Shown piece by piece: positions 21,235-57,837 of a DNA stretch of 64,000 nucleotides. The notes beneath the pieces were generated by a model that was not told the origin of the DNA, made no database searches, and saw only the letters and a list, made by a program, of their open reading frames with translations. How positions within the stretch are numbered: the first letter of the stretch is position 1; the number at the start of each line of letters is the position of its first letter. Position numbers and translations under genes: made by a program. The DNA is taken from positions 32,686 to 96,685 of the IMG/VR virus record IMGVR_UViG_3300038465_000158; one strand, written 5' to 3'. Source of the stretch: a virus.

Positions 21235-21983
21235 TGGAAATTATCGACACCTTTCATTTCAACAATGAAATTGAACTTCTGGATTTGAGAGTTCACATTC
21301 TAGAAGACATCGTCGATAAATTCATTGTCAAAGAGGCAGATGAAACGTTCACGAGAAACCCTAAGAAGTGTTTGGCGGCTCTTTACGATCATCCAAAGGT
21401 ATTCACACATAAAGTCGAATTACCGGATGGCACACCGTGGGAGAGAGACACGTATCAGAAAACAGCAAAAGTCAATCTCGATGAGTTCGGCATTTCGTCT
21501 GACGCTCTCATCATGATGAGCGATGTCGATGAGATGCCGAGTGTCGAAGCAATTCATCGAATGACAACGGAACTTAAATATGGAATGCTCTGCAGATTTA
21601 TGCAGCGACCATTTCAACGGTTTCTCAATGTCGAACAAATTGGGCAACCGTGGAGTGGCACACGAGTTTGTCTCGCTTCCACATATCATTTGCTCAATGA
21701 CGGTAATTTCTCGCATCATATGCCGGCGTATTCAATCGGTAAGGGCGGTTGGCATTGGTCATTTCTCGGCGATACTGAAATGATTATTGACAAGATCAAG
21801 TCATATGGCCACACTCAATTCAATACACCAGAGACAATTCGACTTATCGACGAACGAGTAGCGAACAGTCAAGATGTTCTCGGTCGCACATTCCGATTTC
21901 GTACAGTTGACATTGATGAAACCTACCCAGTGTATATACGTGAAAACCAGGATAAATTGCGCCACTTGATCAAGTTAAAATGA
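21234..21983 (+). CDS. GT17-like glycosyltransferase (GnT-III/MGAT3-like)
   Basis: IIDTFHFNNEIELLDLR..L...VD.F...E...TF, SDVDEMP, and GGWHWSFLG....I..KIKSYGH motifs. Confidence 0.85.
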   Translation: MEIIDTFHFNNEIELLDLRVHILEDIVDKFIVKEADETFTRNPKKCLAALYDHPKVFTHKVELPDGTPWERDTYQKTAKVNLDEFGISSDALIMMSDVDEMPSVEAIHRMTTELKYGMLCRFMQRPFQRFLNVEQIGQPWSGTRVCLASTYHLLNDGNFSHHMPAYSIGKGGWHWSFLGDTEMIIDKIKSYGHTQFNTPETIRLIDERVANSQDVLGRTFRFRTVDIDETYPVYIRENQDKLRHLIKLK

Positions 21984-22004
21984 TTCCATGACCTGAGGAG
22001 GTTT

Positions 22005-23411: not shown

Positions 23412-23420
23412 GGCGCATCC

Positions 23421-23735
23421 ATGCTCTCAGTTGTCGGACATAATCCTTTCACCAATTGGATTACGTATCTTTCAGCCGTCGTCGGTCTCCTTCTCGGCGT
23501 CGGTACACTTTACATTCGTGTCATTTACCCAAGAGCTCTAGCGCACAAAGAGCACGAGGCTGAACGTGAAGGCATGCGGAAAGAACTTGATGCGAAGGAC
23601 GAATTTCATAACGGATTTCTAGATGGTGTAGACGAAGTGCCGGGTATGACACTTGCTGTGCCGCCTGCCGCAGTACGAATCAAAGCGCTTGAAGACATGA
23701 TGCAAACCCTACTCAAACCCGGACAGGAGATTTAG
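23421..23735 (+). CDS. Single-TM membrane protein (holin/lysis-associated)
   Basis: N-terminal TM helix; FLDG..V.G....PPA..R shared with the next gene. Confidence 0.6.
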   Translation: MLSVVGHNPFTNWITYLSAVVGLLLGVGTLYIRVIYPRALAHKEHEAEREGMRKELDAKDEFHNGFLDGVDEVPGMTLAVPPAAVRIKALEDMMQTLLKPGQEI

Positions 23736-33519: not shown

Positions 33520-34356
33520 GTGCTGATATTTTTGGAAGGCGCTGACGGAACGGGGAAGACCACCCTCGCAAATGAGTTGCTAGAATTTTTGGGTGGACCG
33601 GAACATGCTGAAATCCTTCATCGAGGCGTGCCAGTCAGTCACATTCTTGACGAGTACGAACTTCCTCTTTATAACTACCACACGTTCGAGACAAAGTCAA
33701 TCATCTGCGACCGCTGGCATATCGGTGCTGATGTGTACGGACCACTCAAACGAAATGACGGTGGCATCGACCCAGTCATTGGCTGGCACATGGACTCGTT
33801 TTTCAAAGCCAAAGGCGCGTATCTTGTCTACACCGAGATGCCGTTGACCGAACTCGCTGCTCGAGTCATTGAACGCGGTGATGACTACATTGACCCAATT
33901 GAGATTCCAGCCATTATCGCTCGATATCGAGAAGCAATTTCGATGACGACACTTCCTCTCTATGGTTCGACAACTGGATTTCATAATGCTGAAGCCGTGG
34001 CAATTCTTGCTAGTTCCATGGAAATTGGAGCAGCTCAAATCGGCATGTTCAAATCGTACGTCGGTCCACGTCGACCAGTGAAGTTATATGTCGGCAAATC
34101 TCCGACTCCTATCGCGTTCATGCCGTATGAGAATACACCGTCGTATGACATCATCAAGACTCTCGGTGCTCTAAATCCAGTTCATGCCGGATTTATTGAT
34201 TGCCGAGAAGATTTAGCGAGAGCATGGGACGCTCTCTACAACCCGTTCGTCATTGCACTCGATGAAGATGCAGACGCCGCATGTCACAGTGCCCAGATAC
34301 CATTTAACAAGTCAAAGGACGAAGACCCATGGAAATTCACAACAACCATCTCCTAA
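33520..34356 (+). CDS. Thymidylate/dNMP kinase with C-terminal extension
   Basis: LIFLEGADGTGKTT P-loop, ICDRW, RGDDY. Confidence 0.85.
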   Translation: MLIFLEGADGTGKTTLANELLEFLGGPEHAEILHRGVPVSHILDEYELPLYNYHTFETKSIICDRWHIGADVYGPLKRNDGGIDPVIGWHMDSFFKAKGAYLVYTEMPLTELAARVIERGDDYIDPIEIPAIIARYREAISMTTLPLYGSTTGFHNAEAVAILASSMEIGAAQIGMFKSYVGPRRPVKLYVGKSPTPIAFMPYENTPSYDIIKTLGALNPVHAGFIDCREDLARAWDALYNPFVIALDEDADAACHSAQIPFNKSKDEDPWKFTTTIS

Positions 34357-35204
34357 TTGAAGATGTTCGCTGGGACTATCCTGAGCTATTGAAGATGCTT
34401 CGGGACCACGGAGAGGAGACAAGTCCTCGCGGCCAACCGACTCGAGAAATCATCGACGTAGTCATGAAACTTGACCCTCACTCTGCTATCGTCCATGGAA
34501 TCAATCGTCGACTGAGCATGAAACTCATCAGCATGGAATCACTCACTCTTATCACTGGCACCTCATATCCACAACGGCTCATCAAAGCTGCTCCTAACAT
34601 GGCACGATACTTGGACGGTGAAGTGTTTCACGGACATTATGGAGTACGAATTGGCGCTCAACTTGCTGGAGTCATCAATCGTCTAAAGGCGGACAAAGAT
34701 ACTCGCCAAGCACTCATCACAATTTGGGACCCAATTCTTGACTTGTTCAACGGAGTCCAACCAAAGGACGTTCCATGCACCACAATTCTTCAGTTCTTGA
34801 TTCGCAAAGACCAACTCGTACTTCATGTCACGATGCGAAGCAATGACGTATGGTGGGGCACTCCCCATGACTGGGGTCAATTCTCGCAACTCCAACTCGC
34901 AATCGCCAATGTTCTCGGTATCGAGGCTGGACCGTACTACCACCACGCTGTCTCGTTTCATCTCTACGAAAAAGACTTCGACAAAATTGATTTACTCACG
35001 CAACCGATTCAAGTACTTGAACGACATGACGGTCTTGGTTGGGAGAACATCAGTCTCGAAGATTTGAAGACGGTTGCAGAGACACTCATTGAATGTCCGA
35101 TAGTCGTATCCCCCAATGGATTCACAGAAGAGTGGCATAAAAAGCAACAAATAGCAATCGATGTAATGGATGAGAGGTCTGATGCAACGCATATCTTGGG
35201 ATGA
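34329..35204 (+). CDS. Thymidylate synthase-family enzyme with cytosine-type Asp (dCMP methylase/hydroxymethylase-like)
   Basis: SPRG..TRE, YG.RI, DTRQA, KDVPCT, MRSNDVWWGTPHD, SFHLY. Confidence 0.85.
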   Translation: MEIHNNHLLIEDVRWDYPELLKMLRDHGEETSPRGQPTREIIDVVMKLDPHSAIVHGINRRLSMKLISMESLTLITGTSYPQRLIKAAPNMARYLDGEVFHGHYGVRIGAQLAGVINRLKADKDTRQALITIWDPILDLFNGVQPKDVPCTTILQFLIRKDQLVLHVTMRSNDVWWGTPHDWGQFSQLQLAIANVLGIEAGPYYHHAVSFHLYEKDFDKIDLLTQPIQVLERHDGLGWENISLEDLKTVAETLIECPIVVSPNGFTEEWHKKQQIAIDVMDERSDATHILG

Positions 35205-35670
35205 GCTCTGGATGGGAACGGCGAAGTTGGTCGGTCAACGAAGTCTTTGCTCTCGTGCTCAATACGGCGCCGTCATCGTTTCCGAAGACAACAGGATTCT
35301 GTCAGTCGGCTACAACGGTCCACCAGCAAATGCTGGTTACATCTCTGGATGCGAGAATTGGTGCGTTCGAGCAATGAATGCAAGAGAACTTGGTGAAGAC
35401 CATGTCGATCCACATCACGGTGATTGTCATGCTATTCACGCTGAGATGAACTCAGTTCTTCGAGCAGGAAATCTTTGGCTTGAAAAGGCACCGACACTCT
35501 ACGTCAATGCAGTCACGTGCCTTCGCTGCGCTCTCATGACATCGAATTCTGGCGTTCGTCGCATCGTCATGCTTGTCACGCCGTATGAGGAAAAGCGTGA
35601 CCCGATAGCAACGGAAGCGCTGTTCAAGCAGTACGACATCAAGGTCACCGTCATCAAGGAGCAAGATTGA
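35182..35670 (+). CDS. dCMP deaminase
   Basis: RSLCSRAQYGAVIV, GYNGPP, HAEMN, TCLRC. Confidence 0.9.
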   Translation: MQRISWDELWMGTAKLVGQRSLCSRAQYGAVIVSEDNRILSVGYNGPPANAGYISGCENWCVRAMNARELGEDHVDPHHGDCHAIHAEMNSVLRAGNLWLEKAPTLYVNAVTCLRCALMTSNSGVRRIVMLVTPYEEKRDPIATEALFKQYDIKVTVIKEQD

Positions 35671-37451
35671 GTCTCGGAAACCCCAACCTAGAAATTGTCA
35701 ACTCAGTAGAGTCCGCCGGTAAATTCATGACATGGTTAGGAGAACGGCGAGACGTTCTAGGATTTGACACAGAAACCACCGGACTTGACCCTAACATTGA
35801 CAAACTTCGTCTTGTGCAATTCGGCGACCTCGGCACCGGCTGGGCGATTCCTTGGAGCCAATGGGGCGGAGTTTCATTAGAAGCAATTTCTAAGTACCGA
35901 GACAAGCCTATGGTCGGTCACAACGCGAAATTCGATGTGAGATTCCTCGAGTTCCACGGTAATATTCGTATGCCCCGTGAGAACATCCATGACACTCGAT
36001 TGATGTGCCATATTCTTAATCCCGCTGGTTCGACGGCATTGAAGAGCAACGCGGCACGATTGGTCGACCCGACGGCGGCATACGCCAGCAAGCAACTTGA
36101 TGAGGTCATGAGTCAGCAGCACTGGACGTGGGCGACTGTCCCGGTCGACTTCCAGCTTTACTGGTGCTACGGTGCGCTTGATACTGTGTTGACGGCGCAT
36201 CTTTACGACAAACTCAAGCCGCAAATTGACCAAGGTTACAAGGACGTCTACGACCTCGAACAGGCAGTCCAATGGGTTCTTGCCGATATGGAGGCCAGGG
36301 GCTCTAGAATCGATCTGGAGTACACTCGTGACAAATCAGCACAACTCGCCGCATATGCAGATTCAATTGAAGATTGGTGCAAAACTACGTACGGCTTTGG
36401 GCCTGGTCAAAACACGAAAGTCGCGCAGCAACTCAATGCTCTCGGCGCGGACCTCGGCCGTCGTACGACGACTGGTGCATTCAAGTTAGACGAGTCAGTT
36501 CTTGAAGAAGTTCTCGGTTGCGAGTTCGAAGACGCAAAAACGAGGACCGACTTCACAGAAGCGCAGGAATTGGCGTATCGAGTACTCGGTCGACGAAAAG
36601 CTGAGAAGATTCGGTCGACGTATCTCGACCCATTCCTCGATTTTGTCGATGCAGACGGCTTTGTCCATCCTCGTATGAATCAAGTCGGGGCGCGTACGGG
36701 CCGCATGTCAATGGAACGACCAGCACTTCAAACTCTTCCGCGAGGACGAGTCGTTCGTGACTGCTTCATTCCTCGAGATGGGAACGGTCTTCTCAGCGCA
36801 GACTTCGACGGCATTGAGATGCGATGCCTTGCTCATTACGCTCAAGACCCCGCTCTCATTGACGCTATCAACTCCGGTGATATTCACCTTGCCACCGCTC
36901 GTCAAGTCTACAAAGACAACACGATTGAAAAGAAAGACATTCGACGGCAAATCGCAAAGAGCGTCGGGTTCGCCAAGATTTACGGCGCAGGCCCTGAGAA
37001 AATTGCGTGGACGGCTGGAATCTCACTTGACGATGCAAAACGCTTTCTTGCTCAGTACGACGTAATGTTTCCTGGAGTCAAGACGTTCCAGAATACCGTC
37101 GCTCAAGTTGTCAAGCAGCGCAAACAAGAGACAGGAATCGCGTCGGTCCATACACCGATTGGTCGACTTGAACTCGCGCCAGATGACCGTGACTATGCTC
37201 TCGTCAACGCTCTCATTCAGGGTATGGCAGCAGACGTCTTCAAGGAAGCGCTTGTCCGACTTGACAATTCAGAGGCTGGGCAATTTCTCATGCTGCCGGT
37301 CCATGACGAAATCATTGCTGATGTACCATTGGAACTAATGGATGACGTTAAAGTCACAATTCAACGAACCATGTCGGACGACAGATGGGCAGTGCCATTG
37401 ACAGTTGGCATTGATGGTCCGCTCGAACGCTGGGGTGCAAAATATCATTAA
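35667..37451 (+). CDS. polA: DNA polymerase family A with 3'-5' exonuclease
   Basis: DTETTG, HNAKFD, YGALD exonuclease motifs; RTGRMS, ADFDGIEMR, R..AK...F..IYG and VHDE polymerase motifs. Confidence 0.95.
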   Translation: MSLGNPNLEIVNSVESAGKFMTWLGERRDVLGFDTETTGLDPNIDKLRLVQFGDLGTGWAIPWSQWGGVSLEAISKYRDKPMVGHNAKFDVRFLEFHGNIRMPRENIHDTRLMCHILNPAGSTALKSNAARLVDPTAAYASKQLDEVMSQQHWTWATVPVDFQLYWCYGALDTVLTAHLYDKLKPQIDQGYKDVYDLEQAVQWVLADMEARGSRIDLEYTRDKSAQLAAYADSIEDWCKTTYGFGPGQNTKVAQQLNALGADLGRRTTTGAFKLDESVLEEVLGCEFEDAKTRTDFTEAQELAYRVLGRRKAEKIRSTYLDPFLDFVDADGFVHPRMNQVGARTGRMSMERPALQTLPRGRVVRDCFIPRDGNGLLSADFDGIEMRCLAHYAQDPALIDAINSGDIHLATARQVYKDNTIEKKDIRRQIAKSVGFAKIYGAGPEKIAWTAGISLDDAKRFLAQYDVMFPGVKTFQNTVAQVVKQRKQETGIASVHTPIGRLELAPDDRDYALVNALIQGMAADVFKEALVRLDNSEAGQFLMLPVHDEIIADVPLELMDDVKVTIQRTMSDDRWAVPLTVGIDGPLERWGAKYH

Positions 37452-38004
37452 GAAATACGTTGTTTACGGTCTAGTTGACCCAAGGACAAACGAAATTCGC
37501 TACGTCGGCAAAACTCGACAGTTGCTTAAAAATCGGCTTAAGAAGCATTATGAAGACGCAAGTAATCCTCAAAATATTCGTCATAAGGCACAATGGTTTA
37601 GAGTTTTAAAGCAAAATGGGTTAAGACCCTCTGTAAAAATTCTACAAAAATGCGCAGATAACGAAAAAGCATGCGCTGCAGAAATTTGGTGGATTAGTCA
37701 CTTAAAATCAACTGGTGTGGATTTAACTAATCTCACGTCTGGCGGAGACGCAGGCGACGGTTGGCATCACACAGAAGAAGTAAAAAAGAAAATGAGTTTG
37801 CTAAGCACTGGTAGAAAACGTTCTCAAAAGTCTATTGAAGCAACTGCCGCAGCACATCGCGGTAGAAAACGTTCTGAAGAAACGCGGCAAAAAATTAGTG
37901 TAGCACTTCGTGGCAAAAATTTATCGCAACAAACTCGGCAAAAAATGAGCGAAACACATCTAGCAAGAAATCAAAAACTTCGTGAAAATGGTTTATCAAA
38001 GTAG
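37435..38004 (+). mobile_element. Free-standing GIY-YIG homing endonuclease with NUMOD3-like repeats
   Basis: VYGLVDPRTNEIRYVGKT, E..WI, LTN..SGGD, HTEEVKKKMS and GRKRSEETRQKIS repeats; AT-rich; exact start uncertain (37405-37435). Confidence 0.85.
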
Positions 38005-38417
38005 TGGCTGTTGACCCTGGTGGCATCACTGGTTATGTTATTTGGACAGACGGTGAACGCGTAGAAAATGAGCTTAAAGCGAATGAGTTTGTGCAATTTA
38101 TCGCTGATTTAGTTGAGCAAAATAAAATTGATTGCATTGTATGCGAACGTTTTATAGTAACTTCTCAAACTGGCAAGTTTTCACAAGCAAATTGGTCACT
38201 CGAACAAATTGGTGTTCTTAAATTTTTAAGTGCACGATTTCATATTTCGTTTGTTCTTCAAAATGTAAGTGATGCGAAACGGTTTGCGTCAGACGAACGA
38301 TTGAATAGTGTCGGATGGACAAAACCAAAAGGAGCAGGGCACGCAAGAGATGCGCAACGGCATTTACTTTTATATCTAGTCAATCAAAAACTTTTGGATT
38401 TGAAATTACTCATATGA
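37995..38417 (+). CDS. RuvC-like Holliday junction resolvase (probable ATC start at 37995; GTG at 38004)
   Basis: KVVAVDPGGITG, IVCERF, HARDAQRH. Confidence 0.8.
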   Translation: MKVVAVDPGGITGYVIWTDGERVENELKANEFVQFIADLVEQNKIDCIVCERFIVTSQTGKFSQANWSLEQIGVLKFLSARFHISFVLQNVSDAKRFASDERLNSVGWTKPKGAGHARDAQRHLLLYLVNQKLLDLKLLI

Positions 38418-38428
38418 ATGCATAAATA

Positions 38429-38457
38429 TGTTATAATGTCTGTAGAGCACAAGGACG
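38429..38457 (+). promoter_or_regulatory. Extended -10 promoter plus AAGGACG motif
   Basis: TGTTATAAT at 38429-38437; AAGGACG at 38451-38457. Confidence 0.65.
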
Positions 38458-38463
38458 GAGAAG

Positions 38464-40245
38464 ATGCCACTCGCAGAAGTTATTGATGGTGTGATTGATG
38501 TTCACACTGAGTATCGCGACCGATATGCAATCAAAAGTATTCCTGGCTCTCGCTATGACACTCCTGGTCATGCAGAACACTGGACACTTCCGCTAAGTTG
38601 GGCAAGTTGCGTTGCGCTTCGTGGCATTTTCCAGGAACGACTTGAAATCGGAATGCAACTCTGGGAATGGGCTGCGAAAGAAAAAGCAGAGCGCGTTGAC
38701 CTCTCAATGAAACTTCGAGATGCAATTACACCAATTGAAGGCGGATTTGCCGCTAACGACGATAGGTTGTTTCCTCCGCAGCGCGCTGGAGTCCAGTGGC
38801 TTCAAACCACGAAACGAGGTCTTCTCGGTGACCCGATGGGAACTGGTAAGACTCGCCAACTTCTTCTTGCTATTCCTGATGACGGATGGCCGGCTTTGGT
38901 AGTCACACCCAACGGAGTTCGTTCTGCTTGGCGAGACGAAGCCGCGGCGTTGAATCTGCATTGCGACGTTGTCATTCTAGACGGCGGGACAGCGAACCGC
39001 AAGAAACAACTCGAAGGAATCGAAGACGGTCAACGAGTACTCGTTGTCGTCAACTGGGAAGGTCTTCGCTCACTTTCTCGTCTAGCGCCGTACGGCTCAG
39101 TCGCGCTGACGAAATGTGTCGAGCACGGCGGAGAAAATCCAGGTGTCTCAGATACTCGTTGTGAAGTTCATATTAAGCCGCTCAACATGATTACGTGGCG
39201 AACAGTTATTCGTGACGAAGCTCACCGTGGCAAAGACCCGATGAGCAAACAAACTCGAGCGTCGTGGTATCTTCAACATGCTGACGGCGTCCGCTACTGC
39301 TGGGACGCCTCTGGTACTCCAGTTGCTACTCACCTCGGTGACCTTTGGGCTATCATGCACGGCAACTCACCAGATGAGTTTCCTCGCAAAGGTCAGTTCA
39401 TTGAACGCTATGCTCTGTCTCAATGGAACACGTGGGGCGGACTCGACATCGGTGGAGTGAATCCACTCACGTCTGCTGAACTTTTCTCATTCCTGGACCC
39501 AAGATTCCGTCGTGTACCCAAGGAAATTTTGCTTCCATTCTTGCCAGCCAAGGTCTTCGAAGAACGAGTCTGCACGATGTCGAAGAAGCAGAAGGACGCG
39601 TACAACGACATGGCGATGACGATGATTGCCGAATTGGAAACTGGCGTCGTCGTCACAACGAATCCTCTAGCACAGTACACTAGAATGCTTCAGTTCGCTG
39701 GCGCGTACGCTGAAGTTCGTGACGACGGTGAAGTCGGTCTTCTCATGCCGTCATGCAAAGTCGACGCAATGTCAGAAGTTCTCGGAGACATTGGCGGAGA
39801 CCCATGTGCTGTAAGTATGATTTCACGTCAACTTCTTAGCCTCTGTGAAGAGCGACTCACCAAGGACGGTATTTCGTTCACAAGCATTCACGGTGGTCAA
39901 ACTCTTGACCAGCGAGCAGCCATCGTTCGAGACTTTCAAGAACGACGAGTTCAAGTCATCTTGTTGATGGCTCAATCTGGTGGAATTGGAATTACGCTCA
40001 CAACCAGTCCGTACCTCGTTCGTCTTCAACGGTCGTGGTCAATCATCGACAATCAGCAGACAGAAGACCGAGTCCACCGTATCGGCTCCGAACAGCACAA
40101 GCAAGTCACAATCATTGACATTTTCACTGAAGGCACGCTTGAAATGGCGCGCCAGAATGAAAGACTCCGCGAAAAAGAAGGTAATCTTGCCGACATTCTT
40201 CGAGACAAAGAAGCTCTAAAAAAGTTCCTCTTCGGCAAGGTCTAG
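38464..40245 (+). CDS. SNF2-family helicase
   Basis: DPMGTGKT, DEAH, SGTP, GIGITLT, QTEDRVHRIG. Confidence 0.92.
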   Translation: MPLAEVIDGVIDVHTEYRDRYAIKSIPGSRYDTPGHAEHWTLPLSWASCVALRGIFQERLEIGMQLWEWAAKEKAERVDLSMKLRDAITPIEGGFAANDDRLFPPQRAGVQWLQTTKRGLLGDPMGTGKTRQLLLAIPDDGWPALVVTPNGVRSAWRDEAAALNLHCDVVILDGGTANRKKQLEGIEDGQRVLVVVNWEGLRSLSRLAPYGSVALTKCVEHGGENPGVSDTRCEVHIKPLNMITWRTVIRDEAHRGKDPMSKQTRASWYLQHADGVRYCWDASGTPVATHLGDLWAIMHGNSPDEFPRKGQFIERYALSQWNTWGGLDIGGVNPLTSAELFSFLDPRFRRVPKEILLPFLPAKVFEERVCTMSKKQKDAYNDMAMTMIAELETGVVVTTNPLAQYTRMLQFAGAYAEVRDDGEVGLLMPSCKVDAMSEVLGDIGGDPCAVSMISRQLLSLCEERLTKDGISFTSIHGGQTLDQRAAIVRDFQERRVQVILLMAQSGGIGITLTTSPYLVRLQRSWSIIDNQQTEDRVHRIGSEQHKQVTIIDIFTEGTLEMARQNERLREKEGNLADILRDKEALKKFLFGKV

Positions 40246-40288
40246 TCTGCTAAACGTGTTATTATCGTCTTTATGACGAAGGGACGAA

Positions 40289-41212
40289 ATGCACATTAGC
40301 AACTCTGAAATTTCAACTTTCAGACGCTGTCGCCGCAAATGGTGGCTGGGCAACTATCGCAAACTTCGTAAGAAGGAAGAGCGGATAACAGGTCCGCTTA
40401 AGCTCGGTACTAGGATTCACAAAGCCCTTGAAGTTAAATACTCTCTTACGCCAGGAGACCCGGTTGCAGCAATTCGAGCAGAGTATGAGAAGGCTCGAAA
40501 TGAGGTCGGTCAAGACGACGCGACAACTCGAGATGAACTCAACAAAGAAGCAGACTTAGCTCTCATCATGATTGAAGGCTACGTCGAATGGGTCTACGAT
40601 ACTGGAATTGACGACGATATTGAAGTCATCGCCGTCGAGCAAGAACTTGCGGCGGATTTTGAGGGTCTTCGCGTTCCAGTCCAAATCATCGGCAAACTCG
40701 ACACTCGCGTTCGCAGGAAGACTGACGGACGATTGTTCTCGATGGACCACAAAACGTGCGCTTCATTTGACGGTCTCACGAAGACGTTAGAAATCAATGA
40801 GCAGCCAAAGATGTACCAATTGCTCGAACGTTTGACTCTTCCGGAAGACCAGTATGTGACTGGCGGCATGCTCAACATGCTTCGCAAAGTCAAGCGAACT
40901 GCTTCTGCCAAGCCTCCGTTCTACTCACGAGAAGCAATTCACCATACCGATGTCGGACTCCGCAACTACTGGTACCGTCTTCTCGGTATTCTTTCTGACA
41001 TGATTGATGTTGTTGAAGCGCTCGACAACGGCACCGACCCAAACATCGTTGCATATCCGAATCCGACTCGAGACTGCGCATGGGATTGCGAGTTCCGCGC
41101 CGTGTGCCCGATGTTTGATGACGGTTCGCACGCTGAAGGAGTTTTGGAATCAGCGTACGTGATTCACAATCCACTCGCGCGATACTCATCGGAAGCAGAG
41201 GTCTCCCTCTAA
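40289..41212 (+). CDS. PD-(D/E)XK RecB/Cas4-like exonuclease
   Basis: SNSE...F.RCRRKW, GTRIH, GKLD...DHKT, Q..MY, C.WDC.F..VC. Confidence 0.85.
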   Translation: MHISNSEISTFRRCRRKWWLGNYRKLRKKEERITGPLKLGTRIHKALEVKYSLTPGDPVAAIRAEYEKARNEVGQDDATTRDELNKEADLALIMIEGYVEWVYDTGIDDDIEVIAVEQELAADFEGLRVPVQIIGKLDTRVRRKTDGRLFSMDHKTCASFDGLTKTLEINEQPKMYQLLERLTLPEDQYVTGGMLNMLRKVKRTASAKPPFYSREAIHHTDVGLRNYWYRLLGILSDMIDVVEALDNGTDPNIVAYPNPTRDCAWDCEFRAVCPMFDDGSHAEGVLESAYVIHNPLARYSSEAEVSL

Positions 41213-41916
41213 TGCAGCAAGGTGTAAGTTTTCTCATTCACGGCCACAGTAAGACAGGAAAGTCAACTCTTTCCGACACGAGTCCAGCACCACGACTCGT
41301 TCTCGATGCTGAAGGCGGCGCAAGCACCAGATTCACTAAATCTCGCAAGGTGCAATGGAATCCTATGATGGAAGCGCCTCCTGTCCCAGACGGGACCTGG
41401 GAGACCGCTGTTGTCCATGTGAGGTCCTTCCAAGACGTTCAACGAGCGTATGACTGGCTGAACTCCGGCCAGCATCACTTCAAGTCTGTCTCCGTTGACT
41501 CGCTTTCAGAGACGCAGCAACGATGCGTTGACGCCATCGCCGGAACAGAGGCAATGCGAACGCAAGACTGGGGTGAACTTCTCCGCAAGATGTCGTCACT
41601 CGTTCGTCAATACCGCGACCTCATCATTCACCCAACGAACCCTCTTGAAGTAGTCACGTTCATCGCCATGACACGTGACTACGAAGGCACGAAGCGACCG
41701 TATGTTCAAGGCGCTCTTGCCAGCACTCTCCCGTATTACGTCGACGTCTGTGGCTACATGTGGACAGAAGCTGATGCGACATCGGGAGAAATTCGGCACC
41801 GCCTCTTGTGTGGTCAGGTTGGACCATTTGAAGCAGGTGACCGAACCGGAAAACTCGGCACGGTAGTAGAGAACCCGAACATCATGGAGATGCTCGCGAA
41901 AATCTACGCCGACTGA
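41212..41916 (+). CDS. AAA ATPase (Sak4/AAA_24-like)
   Basis: HGHSKTGKST, LDAEGG, VDSLSE, QDWG. Confidence 0.8.
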   Translation: MQQGVSFLIHGHSKTGKSTLSDTSPAPRLVLDAEGGASTRFTKSRKVQWNPMMEAPPVPDGTWETAVVHVRSFQDVQRAYDWLNSGQHHFKSVSVDSLSETQQRCVDAIAGTEAMRTQDWGELLRKMSSLVRQYRDLIIHPTNPLEVVTFIAMTRDYEGTKRPYVQGALASTLPYYVDVCGYMWTEADATSGEIRHRLLCGQVGPFEAGDRTGKLGTVVENPNIMEMLAKIYAD

Positions 41917-41936
41917 GTCTAGAGAAAAGAGAAGAA

Positions 41937-42650
41937 GTGGCTCCATCCTGGAATGACTTAATCGAAGAAGCAAAGAATTCTGGTACTGGTTTTGACCCGT
42001 TGCCAGTTGGAAGGTACGACGTCAAGATTGCGAAGTCGGCTCACAAGACGTCGCAAACTGGCAAGTCGATGTACGAAGTTGAGATGACCATCATCAACGG
42101 TCCGCATGCGAACCGGAAGTGCTGGGACCGATACGTCGTTACTCCCGACAACGGAAAGGCTCTTGCATTCTTCTTTCAGAAGATGAAGATTCTCGGCCTT
42201 GGACCAGAATACTTTGCTGGAAATCCTTCAGACGATGCAGTAGCAGCCGCTCTCGTCGACCGGATATGCACCGTCGAACTTGGACAAACCGAATACAACG
42301 GTGCCACACGCAATGAAGTACGGAAGCTTCTGCCTTTGACAGGAGCAGCAACTGGTGCTCCTCCAGTTCCGGCAGCAACTGCAGCAGGCGCTCCGCCTGT
42401 TCCAGCTGCTCCACCTGTGGCAGCAGCAGTCGTTCCACCAGTGACAACACCTCCGGTTGCAGCAGCGCCAGTCGTACCAGCGCCCGCAGTAGCGGCAGAA
42501 GTCCCTGTCGTTCCTGTAGTTCCTGCGCCAGTCGTGGCAACTCCGGAAGTCGTTGTCGTCGAAGTTGTGCCAGTCGCTGTCGAGACAGCGGTAGTCGCAG
42601 AAGTTGCAGCGGTTCCTGCCGCTCCAGTCCCTCCGGCACCACCGTTCTAA
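41937..42650 (+). CDS. DUF669-like ssDNA-binding protein with Pro/Ala/Val-rich tail
   Basis: FDPLPVGRYDVKI, S.TGK.M, G..ANRK.W, YNG..RNEV; ends in PPF; follows the exonuclease-ATPase pair. Confidence 0.75.
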   Translation: MAPSWNDLIEEAKNSGTGFDPLPVGRYDVKIAKSAHKTSQTGKSMYEVEMTIINGPHANRKCWDRYVVTPDNGKALAFFFQKMKILGLGPEYFAGNPSDDAVAAALVDRICTVELGQTEYNGATRNEVRKLLPLTGAATGAPPVPAATAAGAPPVPAAPPVAAAVVPPVTTPPVAAAPVVPAPAVAAEVPVVPVVPAPVVATPEVVVVEVVPVAVETAVVAEVAAVPAAPVPPAPPF

Positions 42651-43259
42651 ATGCGAATCGTCTTCGACTTTGATGGCGGAGTGGCGAACACCATGCCTCT
42701 TATTGCCGATGCTGCTTCTGGCATCGTCAATAAGAGGTTTGGCACGCCAATAGAAATCGCTGAAGAGTGGTACTGGCGGACTGCTGGTCTTCCATTCGCG
42801 GAACAACTCGCCGTGCTCGATAATCAAATGAATTACGACATGACGACAAAGCAACTCATGGAGAGCACAATTGAACTTCATGGATTCGTGAACATGATTT
42901 ATGACGTCGCTGAACCATGGCCCGACGCACATCCAGCGTTTGAAGCACTCGATTACGGCATGCATCTTGTGAGTGCGACTAGTTCACAACTCGTGAGCAG
43001 ATTCGTCTATAAATGGTTTCCAGAAGCTTTAGAGTCTGTCGAACCAGAAAGCAAACTCTACGCGCTGCAGCGGATTGTCTCGACATCAAAAAGCACAAAG
43101 AAGGTGTTGTACATCGGGGACATGCCGAATGACAAGAAGGTTGCTGACATTGTCGGCGCTGATTTCATCGGAATCGACAGAGGCAGAGATTTGCCTTGGA
43201 CGGAATCGACGAAAGTCGCCGCAGGATTGATGGAAGCATTGGAGATGGCAAGTGTCTAA
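42651..43259 (+). CDS. HAD-family phosphatase
   Basis: VFDFDG motif I; YIGDMPND motif IV. Confidence 0.8.
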   Translation: MRIVFDFDGGVANTMPLIADAASGIVNKRFGTPIEIAEEWYWRTAGLPFAEQLAVLDNQMNYDMTTKQLMESTIELHGFVNMIYDVAEPWPDAHPAFEALDYGMHLVSATSSQLVSRFVYKWFPEALESVEPESKLYALQRIVSTSKSTKKVLYIGDMPNDKKVADIVGADFIGIDRGRDLPWTESTKVAAGLMEALEMASV

Positions 43260-44172
43260 ACCTCGCTACACACTCGCTAAAGATGAAGACCAAGCACGAG
43301 AATATCGTCGTCAATTCATCGAATTTTCAAAGGCTGAACTTCTTACAGGTGGACCAGACCAGTCAATCACTGTCATAGGAGAACTTGCTCGACGGTACGT
43401 CACTCGTCCTGACTGGCTCGTTGGATGCTTTATGGCACCGTACACGACGCCAGGAGCTCTCGCAATCTACGATGCATGGTCAGACGCTGAGCACGCTCTC
43501 GATATTGCCGATGAACAGGATATTGCAGTCTGGTTCCAAGACAATTGGGAAGGACTGCCTGTCCGCAAAGAACGTCGTCCCTGCCGAAGTCCGAAGAAGA
43601 TGGCAGAGTATCTTGCATCATATGCTCGATGGTCAACGAACTTCTTGCCAAAAGCGAAGGACGCAGACTATGAAACGCTCTGGCGCTCGTTGGATGGCAT
43701 CAAGTACATCGGACGATATGCTGGCATGAAGTTGCTTGAGTCTCTTCGACGTGGTGGAATCATCACCGCTGAGATGCCAGACATTCGTGCTGGTAAAGGC
43801 GGTGACTGGTCACCTCGACTTGCGTTCTCCTATCTCTATCCTGAATTCGACTTGATGCTGAACCGAGATTCGTCACAAGCGACAGCCGCATCTATCAATC
43901 GTATTGCAGGTGACATCTACCCAATGTACAAGACAGCCGCTGGAATCCCAGACATGTACACATTTGAAGTTCTGCTTTGCGATTTTGCTCAGCATCTTAA
44001 AGGAACGTATCCGCCTGGAAAACCATTGAATTCAGAATGGAATCACTTGCAAAAAGTTGAATCCTGGTTAGGATTTTCATTAGTTGATACCGACCCAATT
44101 TGGCGCCTACGTAGTGAACTTTTTCCTCACGAATATCTTCGTGAGATTAGCGGATGGGTACCACCAGAATGA
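43252..44172 (+). CDS. Amino acid:DNA transferase-like protein (aGPT-Pplase2 / HhH fold)
   Basis: RKERR, IKYIGRYAGMKLLESL helix-hairpin-helix, FEVLLCDF...G.YPPG, W.LR.E.FP..YL.E; modification-gene context. Confidence 0.65.
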   Translation: MSKPRYTLAKDEDQAREYRRQFIEFSKAELLTGGPDQSITVIGELARRYVTRPDWLVGCFMAPYTTPGALAIYDAWSDAEHALDIADEQDIAVWFQDNWEGLPVRKERRPCRSPKKMAEYLASYARWSTNFLPKAKDADYETLWRSLDGIKYIGRYAGMKLLESLRRGGIITAEMPDIRAGKGGDWSPRLAFSYLYPEFDLMLNRDSSQATAASINRIAGDIYPMYKTAAGIPDMYTFEVLLCDFAQHLKGTYPPGKPLNSEWNHLQKVESWLGFSLVDTDPIWRLRSELFPHEYLREISGWVPPE

Positions 44173-44606
44173 TTGAAGTTTCACCGGGACTCTGGATTCG
44201 TGGGCAATTGAATGAAAAACGAGGCCAAGGGGAAGCAATTGCATATTTGCAACAACTCGGTATTCATTCAGTTATGTCAGTTCATCCGCGAGGAGAACCG
44301 ATGCTAATTGGCCAAAGTGCGATTGCGTATCGTCATGAGTCATTGTCGGACGGTAAAAAGATTTCATCTCGAGTGCAAGACATTGCGGACTGGGTATGGG
44401 AGCACGTTCTCGGCGGAGTACTTGTGACGTGTCATGCTGGAAGAAATCGAAGTGGTCTCATCGTTGCTCTTACGCTAATGCGTCTCTACACTCTTAGCGG
44501 CGAAGAAGCATTACTAATGCTTCGAAGCCAACGACCTCGAGCAGTAGCAAATCCTGCATTTGAAGAGTACTTGAAAGGACTCCCAAAGTATGACTATCGA
44601 AGTTGA
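44169..44606 (+). CDS. Dual-specificity (PTP-fold) phosphatase
   Basis: VLVTCHAGRNRSG CX5R motif; R..RP.A..NPAF. Confidence 0.88.
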   Translation: MIEVSPGLWIRGQLNEKRGQGEAIAYLQQLGIHSVMSVHPRGEPMLIGQSAIAYRHESLSDGKKISSRVQDIADWVWEHVLGGVLVTCHAGRNRSGLIVALTLMRLYTLSGEEALLMLRSQRPRAVANPAFEEYLKGLPKYDYRS

Positions 44607-45249
44607 CGAAAAGACAGGATTGTTCTACCGTACTCATGCGGACGATTCCATGATTATCGGAGAACGTCGGCTCTATAAGAAGTTGCTTGAAGTTGCGCGA
44701 CCAACTGACAGATTTCTTGACCTCGGTGCGCACATCGGAGTCGTTGCGACGATGTTCGGACCGCACGTTGCGCAAGTTATCGCACTTGAGCCAGACGAAG
44801 ACAATCTCACTCTTCTTCGCAAAAACGTCGAAAAATTCAATCTTCAGGGTAAGGTATCTATCATCCCCGAAGCAGTCGCTGACGAGACGGGCACCAGAAG
44901 TTTCTACTTGAACACCAAAAGGGGCATGTGCTCGCATACACTTGTCAAGAAGCGTGGACGAGTTGAAGTGCAAGTTCCAGTGGTTGCGTTCCACGAACTT
45001 CTCGACACATACAATCCTGACCTCATCAAGATGGACATTGAAGGCGGCGAGTACGAACTCATTGGTGACCTTCGCTATCTCCCGCTCAGCGTGAGAGGAA
45101 TCTCCATCGAACTTCACATGAATCGGAAGGAATGGCGAGAGGATTTGGCGCCGAAGATTCATCGAATTCTGAGCGAGCAATTCACTGTAGTTCTTCCACC
45201 AAAATTTGGACCAGGAGGTTGGGGAACTACTCCTCTTTATCTACGATGA
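44590..45249 (+). CDS. FkbM-family SAM methyltransferase
   Basis: FLDLGAHIG, ALEP...N..LL..N, IKMDIEGGE. Confidence 0.88.
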   Translation: MTIEVDEKTGLFYRTHADDSMIIGERRLYKKLLEVARPTDRFLDLGAHIGVVATMFGPHVAQVIALEPDEDNLTLLRKNVEKFNLQGKVSIIPEAVADETGTRSFYLNTKRGMCSHTLVKKRGRVEVQVPVVAFHELLDTYNPDLIKMDIEGGEYELIGDLRYLPLSVRGISIELHMNRKEWREDLAPKIHRILSEQFTVVLPPKFGPGGWGTTPLYLR

Positions 45250-45812
45250 CAGTACTCAATCTTCGAGGGGGCAACGGAAGTGGAAAGACCTTCGTTCACC
45301 ATTGGCTCATCGACAATCATGAGTCGGTGCCGCTTTTCACACCCAATTTCTTCTCTGACACGGAGAAGAAACCAAATGCATGGATGCTCCCTGGTGGTCT
45401 CTTCATCATCGGCAAATACACTGGTGGAGCAGACAGCATTTTGTTCCAAGACCTTTATGCTCAAGTACAAGCGTTTGCTCAAGAAGGCCACGTGTTCTTT
45501 GAGAACATTCTCGTCTCTGGGTCGAAGCAAGCTTGGTTGAGTAAACGACGGACGATTTCCAGTGATTGGATTTGGGCGACACTTGACACTCCGCCTGAGC
45601 TTTGTCTTGAACGAATCTACGAGCGCAACGGTGGTAAGCCAATCCAAGAGAACACGATTCGAGATTTTAACCAACGGATTCGTACTCTCGCAACGTGGCT
45701 TTACAATCAAGGCGAGACATCAGTCCGCGTTGACCACACAGATTCGGTACGGATAGTTCATCAACTTCTAACGGACGGGGGGTGGGAGTGTGGAACTACA
45801 CATGAGTACTGA
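45246..45812 (+). CDS. P-loop nucleotide kinase of the type linked to phage base hypermodification
   Basis: LNLRGGNGSGKT, IGKY.GGAD.I, VFFE.ILVS, LDTP.E.CL.RI..RNGGK. Confidence 0.75.
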   Translation: MTVLNLRGGNGSGKTFVHHWLIDNHESVPLFTPNFFSDTEKKPNAWMLPGGLFIIGKYTGGADSILFQDLYAQVQAFAQEGHVFFENILVSGSKQAWLSKRRTISSDWIWATLDTPPELCLERIYERNGGKPIQENTIRDFNQRIRTLATWLYNQGETSVRVDHTDSVRIVHQLLTDGGWECGTTHEY

Positions 45813-46227
45813 GCTTCGCTACCGCGCTGAGGATTTTGCTATTCGTACCGACCTTATGCGATGTGCGCATCTGAAAAAAGCAAAACAGCAGTTTTGGGCT
45901 ACGTTGCATGGACCGGCTGAAATCACATGTCGAGACTGCGCAGTACCGAAGCTGCAATTCTGCACTCAATGTGGTGAACCAGCGACGTTCTTCTACGTGC
46001 TTGACTATCTTCGTGGCGAAAGTGGAAATGACCCGAATTACTTCATTGCTGCATCATGCGGTAAATGCAATTATGACACAGGTTTTATGAACTTCGGTGT
46101 AAAGTTGCTCAAGATGAAGGATGCGGACAACAAGAAGTACTTCATGGCAGTGCGATTGAGCACATGCAATGACATTCCAGTCGCAGGAATACCGAAGGTC
46201 AAAAAGACGAAGGAGACGGATGAGTAA
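45802..46227 (+). CDS. Cys-rich hypothetical protein
   Basis: C.H, CRDC, CTQC and CGKC motifs. Confidence 0.6.
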   Translation: MSTELRYRAEDFAIRTDLMRCAHLKKAKQQFWATLHGPAEITCRDCAVPKLQFCTQCGEPATFFYVLDYLRGESGNDPNYFIAASCGKCNYDTGFMNFGVKLLKMKDADNKKYFMAVRLSTCNDIPVAGIPKVKKTKETDE

Positions 46228-46645
46228 TTGGAACTGGCTTGAAGAAACGCTCGACCTTCAACGGACAGCATTTAAGATTGACCCTCCAGCGTTGGAAGGC
46301 GATGAGTTCGCTGACTACGTCATTTGGAATCACACTGCTGCTGTCGCTGAACTCACTGAGTTTCTCGAAGAAAATAATTGGAAACCATGGAGTTCGATTC
46401 GTGGTCGAGGCGACCGAGATGCTGCAATTGGTGAACTCATCGATGTGCAGCATTTCATCGCGAATCTTCTCGTTGCTCTCGATTGCACTGATGAAGAGTA
46501 CGAGGTCCGCTACCAGATGAAAATGCAAGTGAATCGCAACCGACAAAAAGACGGATATGACGGCCAAAATAAGTGTCCACGATGCCGAAGAGCATTAGAC
46601 GATGCTGGTGTGCTTTGCACACCGACAAATTGCTATGGAGGTTAA
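46220..46645 (+). CDS. All-alpha dimeric dUTPase/dCTPase (MazG-like)
   Basis: EL.E..E...WKPW, ELIDV.HF, Y..K..VN..RQ..GY. Confidence 0.85.
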   Translation: MSNWNWLEETLDLQRTAFKIDPPALEGDEFADYVIWNHTAAVAELTEFLEENNWKPWSSIRGRGDRDAAIGELIDVQHFIANLLVALDCTDEEYEVRYQMKMQVNRNRQKDGYDGQNKCPRCRRALDDAGVLCTPTNCYGG

Positions 46646-47865
46646 TGTCAATCCGTTTCGTTGATGCTCATTGTTTTGCGGGAGGACTCGCTTTAGGAAT
46701 CAAGCAAAGCGGTGATTTCGAGTTGGTTGGCAAGAAAGAATCTCAAGGCGGCTTCGGTTCACTGAACATGGAAGCAAATCGTCATATCATGGGCGAAAAT
46801 TGGGAGACGCAAAGCGCAGCATACCAAGATTGGGAACCAATTGATGCTCAACTCGTAGCGGCAAATCCTCCTTGCTCTGCATTCTCACTTCTCTCGTCGC
46901 GTTCAGTTCGCGGTATGGACTCGAAAATCAATGCATGCATGTGGGGAGTCGCCGAATACGCCGCTCGCGTGAAGCCAGACATTTTCATGATGGAGTCTGT
47001 TCAAGGCGCGTACACTCAAGGCAAAGATTTAATGGTGCGATTACGCGCTCGTCTTGAAGAACTGAGCGGCGAGCAATACGAGCTCACTCACGTTCTTCAC
47101 TCTGCTCGCTCGATGGGCTCTCCTCAACTACGCCGTCGCTATATGATGGTCTGCCATAAAATTCCGTTCGGCGTCGAACCTCCAGACCCGCAGGAATTGC
47201 CAACTGTGCGAGACTGTATTGATGACCTTCGTGATTTGAAGATTCAATGGGGACCACAGCCGTACAAGCGGATGCCTCTCTCGATGTGGGCAGCGACCAA
47301 GAGGAGTTTTGACGGCCTTATAGATGGTCATGTCTACATGCAGAATCTCAGTCAGAAGCGCATGGAGTTCCTGATGAAGACTGGCAAGTGGACACCGGGC
47401 AAGCAATACAGCGATTTGATGAGGGAGCTCTATGAGAGCAATATCGAATTGGACAGAGACATGTTCAAGCCATATTCATCGATGGTCGAACAAGATTTCC
47501 AATTTGGATGGCGTAGTCCGTACGTCATTCGTCCTGATTGGACTTGTCCTGTTATTACTGGCAACGGTGGCGGTGGAATTGGTCATTATGCTGAACATCG
47601 CATCTTGACCCAGCGAGAAGTTGCTCGTCTCATGGGTTTTCCTGACAACTGGCTAATTGAGCCAAACCAGCGCTACAAGTACCTCAACTCTGGTTGGGGA
47701 AAGGGAGTCACTGTCGATGTTGGCCGTTATTTTGGCACTTGGGCTGGCCGTTCAATCAATGGAGAACCAGGGTCAGTAACTGGTGAGCTCATTGGTGAGC
47801 GCGAACGTCTCATCAACTACACCCAGCACTTCCGAAACTTCGCTGGAGCGCAAAAAGCCGCATAA
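46645..47865 (+). CDS. C5-cytosine DNA methyltransferase-like protein with atypical motifs
   Basis: PPC, PQ.R.R and R.LT.RE.ARLMGFPD present; motif I DAHCFAGG, motif VI MESV and motif X GKGV are non-canonical. Confidence 0.8.
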   Translation: MSIRFVDAHCFAGGLALGIKQSGDFELVGKKESQGGFGSLNMEANRHIMGENWETQSAAYQDWEPIDAQLVAANPPCSAFSLLSSRSVRGMDSKINACMWGVAEYAARVKPDIFMMESVQGAYTQGKDLMVRLRARLEELSGEQYELTHVLHSARSMGSPQLRRRYMMVCHKIPFGVEPPDPQELPTVRDCIDDLRDLKIQWGPQPYKRMPLSMWAATKRSFDGLIDGHVYMQNLSQKRMEFLMKTGKWTPGKQYSDLMRELYESNIELDRDMFKPYSSMVEQDFQFGWRSPYVIRPDWTCPVITGNGGGGIGHYAEHRILTQREVARLMGFPDNWLIEPNQRYKYLNSGWGKGVTVDVGRYFGTWAGRSINGEPGSVTGELIGERERLINYTQHFRNFAGAQKAA

Positions 47866-57631: not shown

Positions 57632-57837
57632 CCTTCTTTTAGCATATCCATCATGTGATTATAGCGAGGATAAGGAAGCCCATGATTTCCGTACATAAGA
57701 AGATTCCATTCAAACTCTGCGAGTCCCTGCATCATTTGCTTGTGCGCGTACTCACGAATGTTGAAGAAGCCGAGCGAATACCAGTCAAATGGAAGTGGAA
57801 CGTCAGGCGTCATAGACATATCGAAGAATATTGCCAT
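57613..57837 (-). CDS. Hypothetical protein
   Basis: Fills the gap between primase and the 57134 gene. Confidence 0.4.
   Translation of the reverse strand: MAIFFDMSMTPDVPLPFDWYSLGFFNIREYAHKQMMQGLAEFEWNLLMYGNHGLPYPRYNHMMDMLKEGCMMKS

Follow-up and report, generated by a model that had tools for sequence, protein, structure and literature searches.

We analysed a 64,000-nucleotide stretch of viral DNA, hereafter the window, which comprises bases 32686-96685 of the 96,685-bp IMG/VR virus record IMGVR_UViG_3300038465_000158 (rated complete by CheckV) and carries a gene cluster for a likely DNA hypermodification system. All genes of the cluster lie on the + strand, within a long co-directional block of replication and nucleotide-metabolism genes (Table 1; gene calls are from Pfam unless otherwise stated, plus PHROGs and NCBIfam). 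The scans of these three databases recovered every gene that a first-pass annotation of the sequence had named, and the tight coupling described there was also found, since from 42651 to 47865 each + strand gene abuts or overlaps the next. A megablast search of 50,697 phage records with the region gave no match, and no cultured phage among them is similar at the DNA level. As set out below, the cluster likely joins a cytosine-type precursor pathway to a DNA kinase and a DNA transferase, with a phosphatase as the third core enzyme, and it likely installs a group other than an amino acid; the identities of the base and of the group are predictions.

Table 1. Genes of the predicted hypermodification cluster, with window coordinates and supporting matches
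Product	Position	Strand	Evidence
P-loop dNMP (deoxynucleoside monophosphate)/thymidylate-kinase-like protein	33520..34356	+	weak Pfam AAA_18, Thymidylate_kin; phrog_761 'thymidylate kinase', E 2e-13
Thymidylate synthase (TS) homologue, predicted dCMP hydroxymethylase	34329..35204	+	Thymidylat_synt PF00303, 64.5 bits
dCMP-deaminase family protein	35170..35670	+	dCMP_cyt_deam_1 PF00383, 58 bits; HAE and TCxxC motifs
Family A DNA polymerase (PolA) with 3'-5' exonuclease domain	35667..37451	+	PF00476, 213.8 bits; PF01612
Six genes of replication and recombination between PolA and HAD: GIY-YIG endonuclease, RuvC-like, SNF2 helicase, PD-(D/E)XK nuclease, AAA_24, DUF669			
HAD phosphatase	42651..43259	+	HAD_2, 30.8 bits; DxD at D6/D8; GDxxxD
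PUGT/ADDT-fold DNA transferase (by model), aGPT-Pplase2 clade, DSP-linked subfamily	43252..44172	+	ADDT PF18724, 22.6 bits (cut-off 26.2)
Cys-based dual-specificity phosphatase (DSP)	44154..44606	+	DSPc PF00782, 38.6 bits (cut-off 33.5); CX5R, C93-R99 (loop C93-HAGRN-R99)
FkbM-family S-adenosylmethionine methyltransferase	44590..45249	+	PF05050, 51 bits; TIGR01444, 81.5 bits
P-loop DNA kinase, 5-hmdU (5-hydroxymethyl-dU) DNA kinase family	45246..45812	+	PF18748, 25.6 bits (cut-off 27)
Cys-rich protein with CxxC repeats	45790..46227	+	no Pfam, PHROGs or NCBIfam family match
All-alpha NTP (nucleoside triphosphate) pyrophosphatase (dUTPase_2/MazG-like)	46220..46645 (reading frame open from 46169)	+	PF08761, 32.6 bits; phrog_18650, E 7e-28
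C5-cytosine DNA methyltransferase	46645..47865 (reading frame open from 46573)	+	PF00145, 91.7 bits

The shorter start at 46220 was chosen for the NTP pyrophosphatase because its homologue in locus L007 is 140 aa long, and the likely start of the C5 methyltransferase is the ATG at 46645, which overlaps the preceding stop (TAATG).

Relatives of the cluster were collected by scanning IMG/VR with profiles of the transferase and of the kinase, and JGI metagenomes with the transferase profile; the window genes were then mapped by tblastn onto the loci found (L numbers denote loci and G numbers genomes compared with the window). The transferase, the DSP and the kinase were thus found to form a trio, conserved in about 21 distinct metagenomic phage contig groups at 30-66% identity, and its recurrence in so many distinct contigs argues that the arrangement is not due to chance. 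The DSP adjoins the transferase in all well-covered relatives. The first-pass annotation had listed this CX5R phosphatase among the apparent tailoring enzymes, but it turned out to be no occasional addition but a constant partner of the transferase clade, and in the literature on known hypermodification systems we found no mention of a phosphatase partner of these enzymes. The same scans returned about 68 classical-kinase loci without a DSP, which have uracil-type TS genes with the motif GAYGANAVHF, usually together with the helical 5-hmdU DNA kinase HMUDK_hel.

The window transferase scored just below the curated ADDT (amino acid:DNA transferase) cut-off, and eight of its nine homologues matched the family (E<=0.01, best 4.8e-8). 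When the PDB was searched by sequence with the transferase or its family profile, or with the kinase or the HAD protein, nothing usable was found; the transferase and the HAD protein have no PHROGs family, and in NCBIfam the transferase, DSP, kinase and HAD protein were all without a match. PUGT emerged from the fold search only. For this search, an AlphaFold2 model of the transferase was built on the alignment of its homologues (pLDDT 89). Foldseek placed crystal structures of PaMx11 gp46/PUGT at ranks 1-3 (8z2n first, and 8z2m), and VIA-align of the model with 8z2m gave a Z score of 15.9 and a root mean square deviation of 3.5, with 246 of the 287 residues of PUGT aligned. The next fold matches, helix-hairpin-helix (HhH) glycosylases, reached a Z score of 10.2 at best. 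As judged from the model, the protein is thus a divergent ADDT of PUGT fold and not the ordinary glycosylase that the first-pass annotation had named as the outcome that would overturn its proposal.

We then compared the active sites. Residues of PUGT were mapped through the M6-type orthologue MP1412_10, the numbering of which equals that of PUGT at D24 and at E243/T244/C247. PUGT D24, E243 and C247 correspond to D36, E239 and C243 of the window enzyme; all three are invariant in the clade, and the E-x-x-x-C motif is intact. E107 and K160, the latter equivalent to PUGT Lys150, are also conserved in the clade. In the characterised clade 2 aGPT-Pplases, the active-site thiolate attacks C6 of the base (PMC8989533), and C243 is the candidate for this attacking Cys in the window enzyme. 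Across the whole DSP-linked clade, Trp146 of PUGT is replaced by Tyr (Tyr156 in the window enzyme) and Thr244 by Val (Val240). Since Trp146 binds the glycine carboxylate in PUGT and Thr244 is a metal ligand (PMC11472151), these replacements suggest that the nucleophile differs from that of PUGT. The function of the family is the transfer of an amino acid onto 5-phosphomethyl-dU in DNA, a reading that is weak for the window enzyme, which was assigned by fold and residues. A C-terminal extension of about 40 residues, usual in the clade, is missing from the transferases of the window and of L007.

The kinase likewise scored just below the PF18748 cut-off, and all 17 of its homologues matched this family (best E 1.5e-19). 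It shares 32% identity over 186 aa with the M6-type kinase MP1412_13 (E 1.5e-16), and these two results together indicate that an activating DNA kinase is present. Its Walker A motif reads GNGSGKT (residues 9-15), in which G11, G13 and K14 are invariant; the PHROGs match of the protein is a family labelled 'terminase small subunit', which we judged to be mislabelled. The first-pass annotation had noted that a helical 5-hmdU DNA kinase is missing, and indeed HMUDK_hel (PF18723) was not matched anywhere in the 96,685 bp of the genome; the activating kinase itself is apparently not missing, however, because the P-loop protein is, by its homologues, a likely member of the PF18748 family. No HMUDK_hel match was seen at any cytosine-type locus examined. 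HMUDK_hel does occur in some trio clusters with uracil-type TS genes (L013 7603-8463, L019 7237-8250 and L040 5413-6330).

We then investigated the TS homologue, which was aligned with T4 gp42, the dUMP hydroxymethylase of the M6-like phage MP1412 and the TS homologue of the nearest cultured relative. In agreement with the first-pass annotation, the base-specificity position is Asp: D181, in a motif reading RSNDVWWGT-PHD, occupies the position of ThyA N177 and aligns with D179 of T4 gp42, and the MP1412 enzyme has Asn there. The catalytic residue is C150 in a KDVPC motif. The residue at the ThyA L143 position, D147, lies three residues ahead of it and is acidic, and the Asp at the ThyA D169 position is kept (D173). 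It has been reported that N177D selects dCMP, that an acidic residue at L143 accompanies hydroxymethyl rather than methyl products, and that D169N is the mark of 5-hydroxy-dCMP synthases (PMC13326640). By these criteria, D181, D147 and D173 predict that the enzyme hydroxymethylates dCMP and is neither a TS nor a dUMP hydroxymethylase nor a 5-hydroxy-dCMP synthase; a synthase of this last kind (RB69 gp48 type) was rejected because D173 is still Asp and not Asn. The closest solved relatives are the CMP hydroxymethylase MilA, which is the best match and has Asp at the position of D181, and small phage TS homologues. Neither a second TS homologue nor ThyX was matched anywhere in the phage's own genome, and Tet_JBP gave no match there in a scan of which the sensitivity was not established, so that no source of a hydroxymethylpyrimidine other than the TS homologue is evident.

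Homologues of the dNMP kinase adjoin cytosine-type TS genes in L007, L017, L036, L038, L051, L052 and phage DSL-LC01, and by the T4 gp1 paradigm the window kinase is predicted to phosphorylate 5-hydroxymethyl-dCMP (5hm-dCMP). The NTP pyrophosphatase is a candidate dCTPase or dUTPase. The deaminase gene overlaps the TS gene by 35 nt; the sister genomes G001 and G010 have such a gene as well, and the cytosine-type genomes G011 (complete) and G006 do not.

Some TS loci of the relatives have further features. The TS homologue of L018 (1523-3517) is a 664-674-aa open reading frame (ORF) with an insert of about 300 residues right after the catalytic Cys, which has an HNH-like stretch and an intein-like look, and the TS ORF of G011 (L126), of 490 aa, may hold an insert as well. 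In L017, of the G006 lineage, a nucleoside 2-deoxyribosyltransferase-family protein (15561-16136) directly follows the cytosine-type TS, and its relatives include MilB and DNPH1-type N-glycosidases.

To assess which base the trio acts on, we considered the trio records with cytosine-type TS homologues (D-type: the window, G001/L007, G010/L045, G006/L017, G011/L050, L036, L038, L051 and L052) and those with uracil-type ones (N-type: G003, G004, G005, G007, G008 and L040). G011, a complete 95-kb genome with direct terminal repeats (DTR), has the trio, a D-type TS and the C5 methyltransferase, and gave neither a deaminase nor a MIPS (myo-inositol-1-phosphate synthase) match; in G006 (83% complete), which also combines the trio with a D-type TS, no deaminase was found. 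The lack of a deaminase in these two genomes indicates that 5-hydroxymethylcytosine (5hmC) is the only phage-made hydroxymethyl base there. Tet_JBP was not matched at E<=0.01 in G010, G011 or G006, but the scan controls gave no match either, and its absence is thus weakly supported. In the kinase tree, all 10 D-linked kinases fall into one clade (UFboot/SH-aLRT 88/88), and in a relaxed column test the D- and N-linked enzymes were disjoint at 17 kinase columns, including those of window E135, G50, G51 and F36, as compared with three transferase columns and one DSP column. Under a strict test that admitted at most two residue types, the two groups were not split at any position of the transferase or the DSP. 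A visible O4/N4 recognition switch in the transferase was considered and dropped, since there is no clean column and the Thr244 equivalent is Val in both groups.

The transferases behave differently from the kinases. D-linked transferases do not form one clade, and a monophyly constraint was rejected (approximately unbiased (AU) test, p 0.02); that of L017 pairs with the one of the N-type locus L019, and the L044/L045 clade (94/95) also contains the N-type L018 and L040. All nine D-type trio records carry a variant C5 methyltransferase, which none of the six N-type ones has, and L044 carries a homologue, too. The window enzyme has the motifs FAGG (I, for S-adenosylmethionine), NPPC (IV, with the catalytic Pro-Cys), the E of ESV (VI), QLRRR (VIII) and REVARLMGFPD (IX). 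A comparison of five homologues showed Ser or Ala in place of the Gln of PCQ, and Ser in place of the Asn of ENV, in every one of them (PC-S/A, ESV). These patterns suggest that the TS, the dNMP kinase, the DNA kinase and the methyltransferase make up a cytosine-specific module, to which transferase-DSP pairs are added interchangeably. The D-type TS, the kinase clade that tracks TS type and the deaminase-free G011 point to 5hmC rather than 5-hydroxymethyluracil (5hmU) as the kinase substrate. Taken together, the distribution of the deaminase, the kinase and transferase trees and the tie to the C5 methyltransferase favour 5hmC as the substrate base, a preference that we hold with somewhat better than even confidence.

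Several observations weigh against this reading. The kinase and transferase families have been characterised on 5hmU only, about six relatives with the same trio have N-type TS homologues, and no transferase or phosphatase column cleanly divides the D-linked from the N-linked enzymes. In contrast to G011 and G006, the phage studied here encodes a deaminase that is translationally coupled to the TS, and phage deaminases beside D-type TS homologues can turn 5hm-dC nucleotides into 5hm-dU (bioRxiv 10.1101/2024.12.05.627091). Furthermore, the C5 methyltransferase would find no substrate if hmC replaced every C. Beyond these points, the D-linked kinase clade, with its moderate support, could mirror physical linkage to the TS/methyltransferase module; the window's own ADDT and PF18748 scores are those just under the curated cut-offs; and MIPS is absent from this genome, so that the nucleophile here is a guess.

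All of these observations up to that on the C5 methyltransferase speak for the foremost alternative, in which the deaminase turns 5hm-dCMP or 5hm-dCTP into 5hm-dU nucleotides, 5hmU replaces some of the T, and the trio acts as in ViI, M6 and PaMx11. The 35-nt overlap of the deaminase and TS genes would fit this route, the cytosines would be canonical or 5hmC, and the C5 methyltransferase would gain a substrate by protecting the remaining C. However, G011 and G006 have the D-type TS, the trio and the C5 methyltransferase and no deaminase, the kinase clade tracks TS type, and a dUMP hydroxymethylase, as used by the N-type relatives, would be a simpler path to hmU. In addition, the seven deaminases that yielded 5hmdU in the preprint adjoined TS homologues predicted to make 5m-dCMP and not hydroxymethylases, and the role proposed for them, the supply of dTTP from 5m-dCTP, is not tied to hydroxymethylases (bioRxiv 10.1101/2024.12.05.627091). 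We therefore consider the hmU route rather unlikely, though the strongest of the rivals. The first-pass annotation had offered a modified hmC, or an hmU reached by deamination of hm-dC nucleotides, and exactly these two are still standing.

Partial deamination could also give both 5hmC and 5hmU in one DNA, decorated alike by a base-tolerant transferase. The shift of transferases between D- and N-type clusters (AU p 0.02), the lack of a transferase column that cleanly divides the groups and the deaminase of this phage are in line with such a mixture, but it is without precedent, needs two unproven activities together and sits poorly with a kinase clade that appears specialised, so that we regard it as improbable. 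It is very improbable that the TS is instead an Xp12-like dCMP methylase, giving 5mC DNA, with the deaminase making dTTP from 5m-dCTP and the kinase/transferase set inactive or acting off phage DNA: Asp at the N177 position is common to dCMP methylases, and a neighbourhood of deaminase, D-type TS and PolA is typical of 5mC phages (bioRxiv 10.1101/2024.12.05.627091), but the Asp at the L143 position is the hydroxymethylase signature and not a bulky hydrophobic residue, no Tet_JBP was matched that could create hydroxymethyl groups later (at the scan sensitivity noted above), the C5 methyltransferase would be redundant, and a packed block of nine genes kept across many contigs argues for a pathway in use. 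Just as hard to credit is the absence of any base hypermodification, with a glycosylase or repair enzyme as the HhH-fold protein and the kinase, phosphatases and methyltransferase serving nucleotide or small-molecule metabolism, for which the sub-threshold family scores and the HhH glycosylases in the second tier of fold matches may be cited, against the far better match to PUGT over 246 of 287 residues, the invariant E-x-x-x-C motif, the ADDT and PF18748 matches in 8/9 and 17/17 homologues and the constant link of the trio to a hydroxymethylase-type TS homologue. Fold, families and residues thus support the proposal of the first-pass annotation that a hypermodification set of the kinase and aGPT-Pplase2/ADDT kind is linked to a cytosine-type TS, and we are highly confident that the cluster effects a kinase/transferase hypermodification of a 5-hydroxymethylpyrimidine.

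We then investigated which group might be transferred. MIPS (PF01658, E ~1e-37) was found in 14 of the ~21 DSP-bearing groups (relatives with it are L007, G010, L012, L014, L015, L017, L036, L038, L040, L051 and L052) and in none of the ~68 DSP-less kinase loci, and it lies directly upstream of the transferase, or of the HAD and transferase genes. The complete 88-kb genome G010/L045, which has DTR, reads MIPS-HAD-transferase-DSP-FkbM-kinase-Zn protein-dUTPase_2-C5 methyltransferase; the L007 lineage reads MIPS-transferase-DSP-kinase, and L044 reads HAD-transferase-DSP-FkbM-GIY-YIG-kinase, each followed by further genes. The window order, HAD-transferase-DSP-FkbM-kinase, is the full MIPS-HAD-transferase-DSP-FkbM-kinase cluster minus the synthase, and MIPS had no match at E<=1 in the 96,685-bp genome of this phage. 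In three separate loci (L040, L045 and L051), the gene right after MIPS encodes a HAD homologue, and this makes the HAD protein of the window a candidate inositol-phosphate (small-molecule) phosphatase that may act here on host-made inositol phosphate. Because the DSP accompanies the transferase with or without MIPS or HAD, its site of action is probably at the DNA level. FkbM homologues are present in the same cluster in L014, L015, L036, L038, L044 and L045; enzymes of this family are mostly O-methyltransferases, in keeping with a hydroxyl of the appended group as the site of methylation.

One of the two products suggested in the first-pass annotation was amino-acylated, and this is doubtful, since the Trp that holds glycine is Tyr here and the closest relatives have MIPS directly upstream of the transferase. 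An O-linked, methylated polyol of the inositol type is a likelier candidate for the appended group than an amino acid. That it is inositol-derived in this particular phage we propose tentatively, with slightly less than even confidence. A literature search found no publication tying inositol synthesis to DNA modification, and the product base is very likely one that has so far not been described.

The window cluster itself appears to be a recombinational mosaic. In its lineage (G010/L045, L007 and L044), PolA, the helicase and neighbouring genes share ~70% amino-acid identity. The window transferase and DSP are nearest to those of L007 (66% and 59% identity) and share no more than 36% and 30-38% identity with their L044 and L045 counterparts, whereas the FkbM methyltransferase, kinase and C5 methyltransferase are nearest to those of L044 (52%, 83% and 87%); this split is what indicates the mosaic. 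The Cys-rich protein is kept at the same position in L007, L044 and L045.

As the best overall explanation, to which we give an even chance as a whole, we propose a two-stage pathway to a hypermodified pyrimidine, most likely on cytosine. The roles in the first stage are inferred from families and diagnostic residues. In the first, pre-replicative and T4-like stage, the NTP pyrophosphatase and the deaminase would shape the dC nucleotide pool, the TS homologue would hydroxymethylate dCMP, the adjacent dNMP kinase would phosphorylate 5hm-dCMP, and PolA would incorporate 5hmC into the DNA. In the second stage, on DNA, the PF18748-family kinase would phosphorylate the 5-hydroxymethyl group, and Cys243 of the transferase would attack C6, so that the phosphate is expelled and a nucleophile is added to the exocyclic methylene. 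The DSP may then strip, at the DNA level, the phosphate brought in by the nucleophile (e.g. inositol-1-phosphate) or unreacted 5-phosphomethyl groups. The HAD phosphatase would supply or trim the small-molecule nucleophile, an O-linked inositol-type polyol possibly drawn from the host pool, and the FkbM enzyme may methylate the appended group. The most specific form of this proposal is a virion DNA with an O-linked, possibly O-methylated inositol-type cyclitol on 5hmC, made by a 5hmC-specific kinase clade and a base-tolerant PUGT-fold transferase and finished by a DNA-level Cys phosphatase; in all its details, this form is doubtful.

The proposed pathway combines features of several known systems. 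With the thymidine hypermodification of PaMx11, M6/YuA and ViI it shares the common logic of a hydroxymethylpyrimidine in DNA, a PF18748 kinase and an HhH-fold Cys transferase. Unlike the systems of PaMx11, M6 and ViI, in which the TS is a dUMP hydroxymethylase with Asn, the window has the cytosine-type Asp181, and its transferase belongs to a separate clade that is always followed by the DSP and has Tyr for the glycine-binding Trp146 and Val for Thr244 of the PaMx11 enzyme PUGT. The accessory enzymes are HAD and FkbM proteins, and no pyridoxal phosphate-dependent, radical S-adenosylmethionine, FAD-oxidase or acetyltransferase tailoring enzyme was found; the window cluster also lacks HMUDK_hel and has an embedded C5 methyltransferase. 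To the hmC synthesis of T4 (gp42, gp1, the gp56 dCTPase and the cd deaminase) it has counterparts in the D-type TS, dNMP kinase, NTP pyrophosphatase and deaminase, and the diagnostic residues of gp42 equal those of the window TS. However, in T4 this synthesis is followed by glucosylation, and the window has no glycosyltransferase; its DNA-level step would be phosphorylation and group transfer, and its backbone is siphovirus-like with PolA rather than T4-like.

The clusters linked to MIPS (L007, L045/G010, L036, L038, L014 and others) have the transferase, phosphatase and kinase in the clades of the window and an equal gene order, but the window has retained HAD and FkbM with no MIPS in the genome. 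In the Xp12-like 5mC deaminase/dCMP methylase modules (bioRxiv 10.1101/2024.12.05.627091), the deaminase adjoins a D-type TS, with PolA and a MazG-like gene nearby, as in the window, which differs in the Asp at the L143-equivalent position, predicting hydroxymethyl and not methyl transfer, and in being joined to kinase/transferase machinery. The nearest cultured relative, the Actinomycetia phage DSL-LC01 (L004, OQ999401), has the same backbone of kinase, D-type TS, deaminase and PolA through to DUF669, and holds in the slot of the trio (19897-23518) a glycosyltransferase, a UDP-galactopyranose mutase, a hypothetical protein and a MazG-like gene. Its gene content suggests that DSL-LC01 may bear a galactofuranosylated hydroxymethylpyrimidine, and the glycosyltransferase set in the trio slot indicates that the post-replicative module can be swapped on a common precursor module.

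Other features of the genome lie outside the proposed pathway. A primase-helicase (Prim-Pol and AAA_25, 57803-59965) and an Rv2179c-like 3'-5' exoribonuclease (61778-62536) are encoded downstream of the cluster on the opposite (-) strand of the window, and the early region of the genome, upstream of the window, holds a gene for a serine recombinase (Resolvase domain, E 1e-38; genome bases 17068-17760). GIY-YIG (NUMOD3) homing-endonuclease genes occupy varying insertion sites: that of the window (37405-38004) lies between PolA and the RuvC-like gene, and those of the relatives lie between or beside modification genes (L044 2671-3174, L050 9612-9977 and L017 9417-9971).

Finally, the cluster bears on how phages diversify their DNA. 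To our knowledge, the characterised kinase/transferase hypermodifications all act on thymine and all attach amines or amino acids. If 5hmC is indeed the starting base, this chemistry would extend to a second base, and if a polyol is attached, a new class of appended groups would be added; in either case, phages would be predicted to resist restriction, CRISPR and glycosylase defences in new patterns. The most specific form of the pathway, if true, would give thymidine hypermodification its first counterpart on cytosine and DNA its first cyclitol-bearing base, and the co-inherited variant C5 methyltransferase would then play some part in it. The comparison offers a concrete target, a single kinase clade with all members beside a cytosine-type TS, and epigenetic sequencing would gain useful tools from enzymes able to phosphorylate or derivatise 5hmC in DNA, if confirmed as such. 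For the family, the DSP would be a so far undescribed obligatory third component, and the transferase appears to swap between uracil- and cytosine-type systems.

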